64,000 bases of DNA from Eledone cirrhosa (lineage: Eukaryota), in NCBI GenBank assembly GCA_964016885.1, contig OZ024740.1, forward strand, positions 348,812,001 through 348,876,000, in the 5' to 3' direction. The first letter of the stretch is position 1; each line of letters opens with the position of its first letter. This document shows, in pieces, positions 9,391 to 18,883 of this stretch. The translations under genes and the position numbers were made by a program. The notes beneath the pieces were generated by a model that worked only from the letters and a program-made list of their open reading frames with translations, ran no database searches and was not told the origin of the DNA.

Positions 9391-9893
9391 TATATATATA
9401 TATATATATATCTTATTACTAATTATATCTAATGTTTCTTCTCTCTTCATAATGTACTTTATAGCTCTGATACTGGTTCAGTCTAATCCATTCGGATTGG
9501 TTAGTCCCATTTATTCATAGAGCAACATCGGTTAAGGTTGGCACCATTAACTCAAGGATAGATGTGGATATATTCATGTATATGTATGTGTCCGCATGTA
9601 TCTGTGTGTTTCTCTATATATTGTATATATATATATATATATATATATATATATATATATATATATATAAACAATTAAGTTAAAAATGTACATCCACATA
9701 TGTATACTGAAATACTAGTATGCATATGAATACACACACGTATACATATGTAGATGTACCGAGTTTTTCACTGGTCACTTTACTGTGAGTGTCCAGCTAT
9801 TCTGTATGTAAACACACAGACAAACCGGTTTTTAGAGTCATACTGGTTTTTGAGGAAACACCTTTCCTCTATTCTCCAGAAAGCCAGACAAGG

Positions 9894-9938
9894 AATATTG
9901 AACTAGTTTCGATGTTGTTACATCTCATCAGCAATATT
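9894..9938 (-). ncRNA. Minimal type-I hammerhead ribozyme (family A, GUU site)
   Basis: Reverse complement AATATTG-CTGATGA-GATGT aaca ACATC-GAAA-CTAG-TT-CAATATT. Confidence 0.85.
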
Positions 9939-10240
9939 TACCTATCTTCCGGCCTCTCTAGAGAATCGTAAAAGCACATATCGTTATATGCTTTTTCTAT
10001 GAAAATTAGTAGTGGGCAGACTAATTTGCATAGAGCGTGAGTACGTACCAGTTCAACGGAGACGATAAAAACAAATAACGAAACGAAATTAAATTTCGTT
10101 TCGTTTGTAACTCACTTTTGTATGACTGACGCTTGTACTCACGCTCTATGCAAATTAGTCTGCCCACTACTAATTTTCATAGAAAAAGCATATAACGATA
10201 TGTGCTTTTACGATTCTCTAGAGAGGCCGGAAGATAGGTA

Positions 10241-10285
10241 AATATTGCTGATGAGATGTAACAACATCGAAACTAGTTCAATATT
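10241..10285 (+). ncRNA. Minimal type-I hammerhead ribozyme (family A, GUU site)
   Basis: AATATTG-CTGATGA-GATGT aaca ACATC-GAAA-CTAG-TT-CAATATT: 7-bp stem I, 5-bp stem II, palindromic stem III. Confidence 0.85.
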
Positions 10286-10706
10286 CCTTGTCTGGCTTTC
10301 TGGAGAATAGAGGAAAGGTGTTTCCTCAAAAACCAGTATGACTCTAAAAACCGGTTTGTCTGTGTGTTTACATACAGAATAGCTGGACACTCACAGTAAA
10401 GTGACCAGTGAAAAACTCGGTACATCTACATATGTATGCGTGTGTGTATTCATATGCATACTAGTATTTCAGTATACATATGTGGATGTACATTTTTAAC
10501 TTAATTGTTTAAGCGTCAGTCATACAAAAGTGAGTTACAAACGAAACGAAATTTAATTTCGTTTCGTTATTTGTTTTTATCGTCTCCGTTGAACCGGTAC
10601 GTACTCACGCTCTATGCAAATTAGTCTGCCCACTACTAATTTTCATAGAAAAAGCATATAACGATATGTGCTTTTACGATTCTCTAGAGAGGCCGGAAGA
10701 TAGGTA

Positions 10707-10751
10707 AATATTGCTGATGAGATGTAACAACATCGAAACTAGTTCAATATT
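10707..10751 (+). ncRNA. Minimal type-I hammerhead ribozyme (family A, GUU site)
   Basis: Same motif, +466. Confidence 0.85.
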
Positions 10752-11172
10752 CCTTGTCTGGCTTTCTGGAGAATAGAGGAAAGGTGTTTCCTCAAAAACC
10801 AGTATGACTCTAAAAACCGGTTTGTCTGTGTGTTTACATACAGAATAGCTGGACACTCACAGTAAAGTGACCAGTGAAAAACTCGGTACATCTACATATG
10901 TATACGTGTGTGTATTCATATGCATACTAGTATTTCAGTATACATATGTGGATGTACATTTTTAACTTAATTGTTTAAGCGTCAGTCATACAAAAGTGAG
11001 TTACAAACGAAACGAAATTTAATTTCGTTTCGTTATTTGTTTTTATCGTCTCCGTTGAACCGGTACGTACTCACGCTCTATGCAAATTAGTCTGCCCACT
11101 ACTAATTTTCATAGAAAAAGCATATAACGATATGTGCTTTTACGATTCTCTAGAGAGGCCGGAAGATAGGTA

Positions 11173-11217
11173 AATATTGCTGATGAGATGTAACAACATC
11201 GAAACTAGTTCAATATT
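11173..11217 (+). ncRNA. Minimal type-I hammerhead ribozyme (family A, GUU site)
   Basis: Same motif, +932. Confidence 0.85.
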
Positions 11218-11669
11218 CCTTGTCTGGCTTTCTGGAGAATAGAGGAAAGGTGTTTCCTCAAAAACCAGTATGACTCTAAAAACCGGTTTGTCTGTGTGTT
11301 TACATACAGAATAGCTGGACACTCACAGTAAAGTGACCAGTGAAAAACTCGGTACATCTACATATGTATACGTGTGTGTATTCATATGCATACTAGTATT
11401 TCAGTATACATATGTGGATGTACATTTTTAACTTAATTGTTTAAGCGTCTGTCATACAAAAGTGAGTTACAAACGAAACGAAATTTAATTTCGTTTCGTT
11501 ATTTGTTTTTATATATATATATATATATATATATATATATATATATATATATATATATATATATATATATATATATATATATATATATATATATATATAT
11601 ATATATATATATTTTAAACACCAAATGTTCCAAGTTTTTTTTTTATTTTTTTTTTTTACCTTAAAACGA

Positions 11670-16350: not shown

Positions 16351-16739
16351 TCCTCATATATATATATATATATATATATATATATATATATATATATATA
16401 TATATATATATATATATATATATATATATAAAACGAAGGAATTGTGGTAAGGAACCAGATGGACTCACCAGAGTACTCAATACTTAGGGTAGTAGAGTGG
16501 GTAATAGGAAAAAAGTATCATATTTTTTCATACATATATATATATATATATATATATATATATATATATATATAAGAAAAAAGTGGTGATATATGTATAT
16601 ATATATATATATATATATATATATATATATATATATATATATATATATATAGTAATAATAATAAATTTGAAGACTAAAATCCAAAGAGGGATCGATAAGG
16701 ATAAATATATATCAAATATATAAGAACCGAGGAGCAAAT

Positions 16740-17250
16740 ATTTATTAAAATAACAGATTAAAGTTTAAGCAAAGAATCGCTGCTTTCACCCTTAACGGGA
16801 TCTTATTTTATTTCCTAGTTAGAATTTTAGTCTACGACTTCAGTTATACCATTTACGTGGTTTTGTCTTTGCGTGCAATTGTTCTCCCCGACCCACATAT
16901 GACGTATTATCTTCGTTTTTTTCGTTCATTGCCAGAGAACGTCTCTATGCACCACCTAATAGAATATTAGTCTACGACTTCTTTTATACCATAAACATGG
17001 TTTTGTCTTTGCGTGTAATTGTTTTTTACCGCTCCAAATAATGACGTATTATATTCGTTTTTTCCCGTTCTTTGCCAGGGAACTTTTCCACAAACCAAAG
17101 TATCGTCGTCCTGTCTTCCTCCGGTTGCAACGTTTTTTGAAATATTTACTTCTGCGTTCACAGATTGACTTTGTTAGTTTCAGAAGATCCCGTTAAGGCT
17201 GAAAGCAGCGATTCTTTTCTTAAACTTTAATCTGTTATTTTAATAAATAA
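16740..17250. mobile_element. Small element with terminal inverted segments and internal direct repeat, next to (TA)n
   Basis: 16741-16804 is the inverse of 17184-17248; tagtctacgacttc repeated at ~16828 and ~16968. Confidence 0.55.
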
Positions 17251-17574
17251 ATAAATATAAATATATATATATATATATATATAAAACAAATAACGAAACG
17301 AAATTAAATTTCGTTTCGTTTGTAACTCACTTTTGTATGACTGACGCTTAAACAATTAAATTAAAAATGTACATCCACATATGTATACTGAAATACTAGT
17401 ATGCATATGAATACACACACGTGTACATATGTAGATGTACCGAGTTTTTCACTGGACACTTTACTGTGAGTGTCCAGCTATTCTGTATGTAAACACACAG
17501 ACAAACCGGTTTTTAGAGTCATACTGGTTTTCGAGGAAACACCTTTCCTCTATTCTCCAGAAAGCCAGACAAGG

Positions 17575-17619
17575 AATATTGGACTAGTTTCGATGTTGTT
17601 ACATCTCATCAGCAATATT
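17575..17619 (-). ncRNA. Minimal type-I hammerhead ribozyme (family A, GUC site)
   Basis: Reverse complement AATATTG-CTGATGA-GATGT aaca ACATC-GAAA-CTAG-TC-CAATATT. Confidence 0.9.
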
Positions 17620-18091
17620 TACCTATCTTCCGGCCTTTCTAGAGAATCGTAAAAGCACATATCGTTATATGCTTTTTCTATGAAAATTAGTAGTGGGCAG
17701 ACTAATTTGCATAGAGCGTGAGTACGTACCGGTTCAGCGGAGACGATAAAAACAAATAACGAAACGAAATTAAATTTCGTTTCGTTTGTAACTCACTTTT
17801 GTATGACTGACGCTTAAACAATTAAATTAAAAATGTACATCCACATATGTATACTGAAATACTAGTATGCATATGAATACACACACGTGTACATATGTAG
17901 ATGTACCGAGTTTTTCACTGGACACTTTACTGTGAGTGTCCAGCTATTCTGTATGTAAACACACAGACAAACCGGTTTTTAGAGTCATACTGGTTTTCGA
18001 GGAAACACCTTTCCTCTATTCTCCAGAAAGCCAGACAAGCATATAACGATATGTGCTTTTACGATTCTCTAGAAAGGCCGGAAGATAGGTA

Positions 18092-18136
18092 AATATTGCT
18101 GATGAGATGTAACAACATCGAAACTAGTCCAATATT
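18092..18136 (+). ncRNA. Minimal type-I hammerhead ribozyme (family A, GUC site)
   Basis: AATATTG-CTGATGA-GATGT aaca ACATC-GAAA-CTAG-TC-CAATATT. Confidence 0.9.
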
Positions 18137-18557
18137 CCTTGTCTGGCTTTCTGGAGAATAGAGGAAAGGTGTTTCCTCGAAAACCAGTATGACTCTAAAA
18201 ACCGGTTTGTCTGTGTGTTTACATACAGAATAGCTGGACACTCACAGTAAAGTGTCCAGTGAAAAACTCGGTACATCTACATATGTACACGTGTGTGTAT
18301 TCATATGCATACTAGTATTTCAGTATACATATGTGGATGTACATTTTTAATTTAATTGTTTAAGCGTCAGTCATACAAAAGTGAGTTACAAACGAAACGA
18401 AATTTAATTTCGTTTCGTTATTTGTTTTTATCGTCTCCGCTGAACCGGTACGTACTCACGCTCTATGCAAATTAGTCTGCCCACTACTAATTTTCATAGA
18501 AAAAGCATATAACGATATGTGCTTTTACGATTCTCTAGAAAGGCCGGAAGATAGGTA

Positions 18558-18602
18558 AATATTGCTGATGAGATGTAACAACATCGAAACTAGTCCAATA
18601 TT
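18558..18602 (+). ncRNA. Minimal type-I hammerhead ribozyme (family A, GUC site)
   Basis: Same motif, +466. Confidence 0.9.
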
Positions 18603-18883
18603 CCTTGTCTGGCTTTCTGGAGAATAGAGGAAAGGTGTTTCCTCGAAAACCAGTATGACTCTAAAAACCGGTTTGTCTGTGTGTTTACATACAGAATAGC
18701 TGGACACTCACAGTAAAGTGTCCAGTGAAAAACTCGGTACATCTACATATGTACACGTGTGTGTATTCATATGCATACTAGTATTTCAGTATACATATGT
18801 GGAAGTACATTTTTAATTTAATTATATATATATATATATATATATATATATATATATATATATATATATATATATATATATAT

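Follow-up and report, generated by a model that had tools for sequence, protein, structure and literature searches.

The closest described relatives of the element reported here are the metazoan retrozymes without long terminal repeats (LTRs), called non-LTR retrozymes, and the endonuclease-positive Penelope-like elements; statements about both follow the available parts of the cited reports. Related retrozymes accumulate as circles (PMC7229834), and circular RNA templates have already been proposed (PMC7229834; PMC4209133; PMC7761336). Retrozyme mobilisation by Penelope enzymes from circular RNA has been proposed, not demonstrated (PMC7229834, PMC4209133), and a recent preprint favours local amplification, from a Penelope terminal repeat (bioRxiv 10.64898/2026.07.22.740005). 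Endonuclease-positive Penelope-like elements form partial tandems with an inverted, 5'-truncated arm, carry a tail at one end and use (TA)n targets (PMC8557442, PMC3846280). The Penelope protein of an anole was shown in vitro to cut AT-rich DNA on both strands and to extend both, and two internal RNA starts bound the tail (PMC11167929). Earlier publications already contain the class of element, the inverted arms of Penelope insertions and the circle model. The present locus lies in a 64,000-nt stretch of Eledone cirrhosa DNA (assembly GCA_964016885.1, contig OZ024740.1, positions 348,812,001 to 348,876,000 of the forward strand; hereafter the window), which holds two arrays of a 466-nt monomer bearing a hammerhead ribozyme. 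Each array was very probably made in one Penelope-type insertion in trans, from one template lineage.

The arrays were delimited by sequence comparison of the window. Their parts are as follows, with monomer positions counted from the base after the predicted ribozyme cut (position 1 = window 10745).

10745..11210, + strand: reference monomer, 466 nt, predicted cut to predicted cut
9668-11512: array 1, two arms
9668..10134, - strand: left arm of array 1, 467 nt, one turn within 1-2 nt (monomer 233 to 233), outer end: alpha
10135..11512, + strand: right arm of array 1, 1378 nt, 2.96 turns (monomer 323 to 302), outer end: beta
17283-18823: array 2, two arms
17283..18039, - strand: left arm of array 2, 757 nt, 1.62 turns (monomer 9 to 299), outer end: beta
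18037..18823, + strand: right arm of array 2, 787 nt, 1.69 turns (monomer 374 to 228), outer end: alpha
9624..9669: (TA)n target of array 1, left side
11510..11612: (TA)n target of array 1, right side
17261..17283: (TA)n target of array 2, left side
18823..18885: (TA)n target of array 2, right side
10972..10977, + strand: site alpha, monomer 228-233, a recurrent insertion end
10978..11046, + strand: tail from alpha to beta, about 70 nt, with a 13-bp predicted hairpin at 11006-11034
11043-11046, + strand: site beta, monomer 299-302, a recurrent insertion end

Both arrays (2/2) consist of arms placed head-to-head, joined 5' to 5' and diverging in the ribozyme sense, with a 5'-truncated inverted arm. 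The arms of array 1 meet without microhomology, and those of array 2 overlap by 3 nt at the inversion junction. TRF reports the right arm of array 1 as a repeat of period 466 with 3.0 copies. All four outer ends lie in (TA)n, which the arrays adjoin directly, without LTR-like flanks. Each array has one outer end at alpha and the other at beta (2/2); the chance of such end matching is 0.001-0.0025, as calculated with a 5-nt window chosen post hoc. Alpha and beta both fall in predicted unpaired or weakly paired U-rich stretches that follow hairpins. The head-to-head arms and the fixed outer ends are anatomy absent from the initial annotation of this DNA.

The same end sites recur in public sequencing data, for which one monomer was compared with 4 of 24 listed runs (X1, X5, X8 and X23). 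In run X1, contigs pass from the monomer to (TA)n at 10972 (2 contigs), 10977 (6) and 11046 (12), which correspond to monomer 228, 233 and 302, and one contig of run X5 does so at 11046. (TA)n is found in 4 of the 10 loose-end rows listed out of 46, and all 4 are at alpha or beta (20 contigs of X1 and 1 of X5). Site alpha is probably a start of reverse transcription.

Array 1 and array 2 are separated by 5.77 kb of unrelated sequence. When the four 1-kb flanks of the arrays were compared with each other, no matches were obtained, so that the flanks are unrelated and not mirrored. It follows that the two arrays are independent insertions, with no conversion reaching the flanks; gene conversion extending into the flanks, which the initial annotation had named as another possible source of homogeneity, was looked for in these four segments and none was seen.

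The monomer carries one hammerhead motif per unit. The seven copies in the arrays, all identified by both motif scan and Rfam, are the following.

9894..9938, - strand: type I hammerhead, GUU (array 1)
10241..10285, + strand: type I hammerhead, GUU (array 1)
10707..10751, + strand: type I hammerhead, GUU (array 1)
11173..11217, + strand: type I hammerhead, GUU (array 1)
17575..17619, - strand: type I hammerhead, GUC (array 2)
18092..18136, + strand: type I hammerhead, GUC (array 2)
18558..18602, + strand: type I hammerhead, GUC (array 2)

Three of these stand consecutively in tandem in array 1 and two in array 2. The motif has the full core, a 7-bp stem I and a 5-bp stem II, with a palindromic CUAG replacing a stable helix III. 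It is similar to Rfam HH9 (36.5-38.9 bits, E-values 4e-7 to 2e-6), under the gathering score of 52, and at the gathering threshold the whole window has no Rfam matches; the background of the motif scan is 2 matches in 20 shuffled windows. The cut site is intact at all 7 crossings in the arrays. The C/T site that distinguishes the arrays is part of the cut triplet, which is either GUC or GUU. Both are NUH triplets, and GUU is listed as active in the available part of PMC3138052. Decay private to array 1 was considered as the origin of GUU and rejected: U is the majority letter in run X1, and C accounts for ~11% of summed depth.

No open reading frame (ORF) of at least 120 aa and no reverse transcriptase (RT) or GIY-YIG coding region is found in the arrays, and the GC content is 0.30-0.34 in the 2-kb bins holding most of both. 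Folded as a circle, the unit has a minimum free energy of -158.9 kcal/mol, as against -95.1 +/- 5.2 for 60 shuffles (z -12.3); the z-scores for the two array haplotypes are -12.3 and -10.5, and that of the antisense strand is -8.0. The predicted circular fold closes across the cut site. The family is dispersed and multi-copy, with two loci in the window with unrelated flanks and 1120 contigs from run X1. Tandem period, hammerheads, absence of coding sequence, fold and dispersed copies fit classification of the 466-nt unit as a putative non-LTR retrozyme, both as described in PMC7229834 and by the working definition of bioRxiv 10.64898/2026.07.22.740005.

Units of the two arrays differ at eleven columns. 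Seven of these (50, 126, 159, 222, 311, 411 and 466) are fixed within each array, in both arms, and differ between arrays; the remaining variation is four singletons in 3389 nt (0.12%; window 10050, 10438, 11450 and 18804). The initial annotation had read CTAGTT in the hammerheads of array 1 and CTAGTC in those of array 2, and this is the case in 4/4 and 3/3 copies, respectively. Four further sites that it had quoted also partition by array (monomer 126, 50, 411 and 222). Its statement that variants are fixed within arrays holds for the five sites that it listed; it missed two more (159 and 311), and the four singletons break strict uniformity. Pairs of units differ at 11/4646 positions (0.24%) when taken from the same array and at 107/6136 (1.74%) when taken from different arrays. 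Among the array units no variant is common to only two units of one array, and there are no four-gamete violations (0/55) and no mosaic units in either array. As the seven sites are linked, they represent one haplotype split, and the chance that 8 unit passes would divide 4:4 by array is 2/70 = 0.029. The singleton rate of 0.12% is an upper bound on divergence because copying and assembly errors are included in it, and in relative terms it supports the earlier suggestion that both insertions are young.

The value of shared haplotypes depends on how diverse the family is. Among the 1120 contigs of run X1, 590, 395, 123 and 12 have 99+%, 95-99%, 90-95% and under 90% identity to the monomer, respectively, with 135 under 95%. 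Roughly 7 differences would be expected between random family copies at 26 of the 30 listed sites, an estimate that drops four rows under 1% and for which summed contig depth is a rough frequency only. Because the family is diverse, identical arm haplotypes within one array are informative. The array-2 alleles at 50, 311, 411 and 466 occur in 19, 16, 12 and 14 contigs of X1, respectively (11-36% of summed depth). Since these 4 of the 7 sites segregate family-wide, the differences between array 1 and array 2 reflect distinct template lineages and not array age; the arrays stem, as their sequences indicate, from different template lineages of a diverse family. The earlier proposal that each array was copied in one event is thus supported, with one template lineage as the source, by the haplotype common to both arms, the diversity of the family, the unrelated flanks and the retrotransposition-like ends.

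Several other observations were made in the public runs. Tandem joints of the monomer are present in contigs of X1, X8 and X5. In the raw-read run X23, which shares its organism label with the matching run X4, 0 reads were placed on the monomer in a sample of ~1/100 of the run. In X8, a small run from a second sample, several sites have the alternative letter at full depth, as if one other haplotype dominates. Monomer words (query 10600-11500) are found in 20 runs with 17 coded organism labels from 16 studies, and half or more of them in 10 runs with 7 organism labels. Run X5 has a different organism label and contains contig pieces of 68-99 nt that are identical to array 1. Matches under other labels could come from closely related organisms, from horizontal spread or from contamination with an element of high copy number. 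An exact scan of metagenome and viral contig collections with the 30-nt hammerhead core gave 0 matches in each.

Uniform units could also arise in place: after insertion of one unit or a short copy, local DNA-level processes (unequal crossover, slippage, gene conversion or fold-back) would amplify or homogenise it. This is the route proposed for retrozyme arrays in the available part of the preprint cited above (bioRxiv 10.64898/2026.07.22.740005); any recent local duplication yields uniform units, and DNA-level duplication does occur in the window, where 9.5-kb segments are 98-99.5% alike. It is nevertheless an improbable origin for these arrays. All outer ends of both arrays are at two family-wide end sites, which DNA-level events would not respect, and neighbouring units have no common variants. 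Furthermore, the flanks are neither duplicated nor converted, and folding back of the shorter arm of array 1 could not have yielded the longer one.

Tandem and inverted repeats are difficult to assemble, and fold-back reads or polishing might have created the inversions or the uniformity. No strand-changing joint is among the joints listed from contigs of the four public runs, so both inversion junctions come from the assembly alone. An artefact is, however, very improbable: the flanks show no mirroring, the arms are unequal in length and end at different sites, the singletons persist, and the two arrays remain distinct although they are 98.5% alike. In addition, the end sites and tandem joints recur in independent contigs.

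The proposed model for the formation of the arrays is as follows. A tandem donor would be transcribed, dimeric hammerheads would cut the transcript and a host ligase would close the monomer. The GIY-YIG endonuclease of a Penelope-like element would nick both strands of a (TA)n tract. Each 3' end would then prime complementary DNA (cDNA) synthesis at an unpaired U-rich site after a hairpin (alpha, 228-233, or beta, 299-302), using 1-3 nt of TA microhomology. The two cDNAs would run for 1.0 to 3.0 turns and leave no scar on passing the ribozyme site; 0-3 nt of microhomology would be used in joining their inner ends. Alternatively, the second arm may arise by fold-back of one cDNA followed by trimming at alpha. 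Mirroring of singletons between arms, a possible mark of cDNA fold-back, is seen for neither of the two singletons located in mirrored zones; the remaining two are located elsewhere, and the result does not discriminate. In this model, units and arms share a haplotype because all copy one template.

Two statements of different strength can be made about the template. With about even confidence, each array would be a single insertion of the 466-nt retrozyme into (TA)n by a borrowed Penelope-type RT copying circular RNA. More tentatively, and somewhat short of even confidence, the arrays may preserve the outcome of rolling-circle reverse transcription on one circular RNA, begun by a Penelope enzyme from both nicked strands at two fixed sites. 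A circle is favoured because of the 7 intact cut-site crossings, the fold that closes across the cut, the one-turn arm and the need for a lengthening step. To within 1 nt, the left arm of array 1 makes a single turn (for one of four arms, a post hoc chance of about 0.026), and an array-lengthening step would be needed somewhere. The initial annotation had proposed rolling-circle reverse transcription of circular RNA; this stands as the most likely template form, but a linear uncleaved multimer gives the same pattern. Its suggestion that a non-integer copy number would point to a circle does not help to discriminate, as such numbers are expected under circular and linear templates alike because internal starts are fixed and stops are variable, whichever template is used.

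The linear template is a less probable but serious alternative. Here, a one-step Penelope-type insertion would copy a linear uncleaved multimer from a donor that is young and homogeneous (about 4.2 and 3.5 units for the two arrays), primed twice, at alpha and beta, or would copy two RNAs of the same donor locus, and uniformity would be inherited from the donor. With the left arm placed on the 5' side, both arrays can be drawn along one linear multimer, leaving similar gaps (89 and 74 nt), and the start of array 2 would be 8 nt from the cut. Helix III, a weak palindrome, depends on a dimer. A Penelope enzyme is shown to initiate internally on linear RNA that is unprocessed in the available part of PMC11167929, and multimeric retrozyme RNAs exist in axolotl according to that of PMC7229834. 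This alternative nevertheless requires donors longer than either array, whereas the longest tandem run here is 2.96 units and linear copying alone would only keep or shorten runs. It also requires three or four uncut ribozymes per transcript, and it leaves the exact one-turn arm unexplained.

Several points weigh against a circular template or, more broadly, against the proposed insertion model. The fit of both layouts to a linear multimer is one of them. The left arm of array 2 stops 8 nt from the cut site, as it would on cleaved linear RNA (chance about 0.10), and the arms of array 2 end at 1.62 and 1.69 turns, not at whole turns. In the available parts of the reports, the Penelope enzyme of the anole has an in vitro preference for uncleaved linear RNA (PMC11167929), and cleavage failed in 8 of 9 dimers of Xenopus retrozymes (bioRxiv 10.64898/2026.07.22.740005). 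The 30 variant rows listed from X1 lack three of the 7 diagnostic sites, and all four singletons are absent from them as well. At an older locus of another hammerhead family, near 47537 (see below), the arms are 81/84 alike (96.4%), which is in the range between loci (96.4-96.9%). Comparison of the 466-nt monomer with the Penelope-like ends in the window gave no real similarity, and the partner element was not found there. The missing inversion joints described above are a further point.

Two other hammerhead families are present in the window, and their build matches that of the two arrays, which speaks for the same kind of insertion.

18885..19581: second hammerhead family, hammerhead at 19352-19433 on the + strand, 471-nt period, long helix III, GUC
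26378..27134: third hammerhead family, copies near 996-1489, 47537-47879 and 57080-57422

The second family is unrelated to the monomer and is inserted directly after array 2; its head-to-head arms are 152/153 alike and it has a 74-nt one-sided tail. The third family at 26378-27134 also has head-to-head arms, which are 231/233 alike (99.1%), compared with 93-97% to other loci, and a 38-nt one-sided tail. Its triplet is CUU and its helix III has a palindrome of 8 nt; the U at the cut position extends the palindrome, as in array 1. Its arms near 47537 share two private changes. In template coordinates, the two arms overlap in both families, a difference from L1 twin priming. The monomer and the third family match over 12 nt in opposite orientations (E-value: 0.036), which was put down to chance. 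A lone hammerhead-like motif is found at 23203-23265 on the minus strand.

The window also contains broken remnants of Penelope-like elements.

21025..22964, + strand: broken Penelope-like RT/GIY-YIG remnant (RVT_1, E-value: 0.0018, below the cut-off), with a second copy at 2439-4150

Both remnants are read as RT/GIY-YIG from their motifs, and Pfam support is weak. The two copies are 88% alike, have a degenerate hammerhead-like motif in the 3' part and end in TA tracts, which is (TA)n in the case of 21025-22964. Penelope-like elements therefore appear to be present in the genome, and 21025-22964 is at most a candidate partner of the retrozyme. At 24906-25987, a GIY-YIG-like frame (-) adjoins an RT-N-terminal-like frame (+), which we take from its motifs to be a possible inverted Penelope insertion; Pfam gave no convincing match for these frames. 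Small inverted-repeat elements lie beside TA tracts at 16739-17249, 4174-4309, 2073-2399 and 9411-9623, and two of them border the left side of the arrays. Nesting of insertions at TA tracts seems to be common in the window.

The remainder of the window includes tandem segmental repeats of about 9.5 kb at 40882-64000, which are mostly 98-99.5% alike. Each contains an ORF with an interleukin-17 domain (42893, 52436 and 62029; Pfam IL17 E-value for the first: 1.7e-13). Near-identical copies of a non-LTR retrotransposon with flanking (AAT)n tracts are found at 30855-34016 and 37322-40483, and one copy has an open frame of 1053 aa (RVT_1, E-value: 9e-23). The repeat at 13881-14070 and its copies are presumably related to short interspersed elements (SINEs), resembling those of cephalopods.

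Uniformity is expected within a young retro-insertion, and the surprise is therefore moderate. The locus is sequence-level evidence for retrozyme arrays arriving ready-made with Penelope-type ends. With two start sites and a hairpin named, the mechanism of retrozyme integration becomes testable in vitro, and the same analysis of the whole genome would separate circular from linear templates. If the rolling-circle reading is true, the haplotype, arm length and end site of each array would be a genome-wide read-out of ribozyme-made circles becoming DNA, including the error rate and processivity of the enzyme.

The arrays resemble the metazoan non-LTR retrozymes (Cervera and de la Pena 2020, PMC7229834; Li, Clavereau and Pollet 2026, bioRxiv 10.64898/2026.07.22.740005) in having a non-coding tandem unit of a few hundred bases, a GC content under 50% and one type I hammerhead per unit. 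They also share a short palindromic helix III, as in axolotl HHR_Amex1, a highly self-paired fold and the presence of Penelope-like elements in the same genome (PMC7229834). The unit of 466 nt is slightly longer than the 150-450 nt first reported (PMC7229834) and lies inside the 51-972 nt of the preprint (bioRxiv 10.64898/2026.07.22.740005), and array 1 differs in its GUU triplet. For the present family, expression and circles are predicted. No account of head-to-head arms, fixed end sites, (TA)n targeting or per-array haplotype uniformity was found in the available parts of the retrozyme literature, the supplements of which may hold such cases. Among Penelope-like elements, those with (TA)n targeting of the Neptune/Naiad type are similar in their partial tandems, inverted arm, one-sided tail, microhomology junctions and hammerhead in the repeat, and in that microsatellite targets conceal any target duplication (PMC8557442, PMC3846280, PMC11167929). 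The tail of the arrays, at about 70 nt, is longer than the 30-40 nt described (PMC8557442, PMC3846280, PMC11167929). The arms of the arrays hold up to three whole units, and the arrays are without an RT or GIY-YIG frame, which further distinguishes them from Penelope-like elements. Head-to-head arms with a gap at the junction are also produced by L1 twin priming, in which two primings take place in one event. Compared with L1 insertions, the arrays have neither a poly(A) tail nor a target duplication, and both primings would have occurred at fixed sites of the element.

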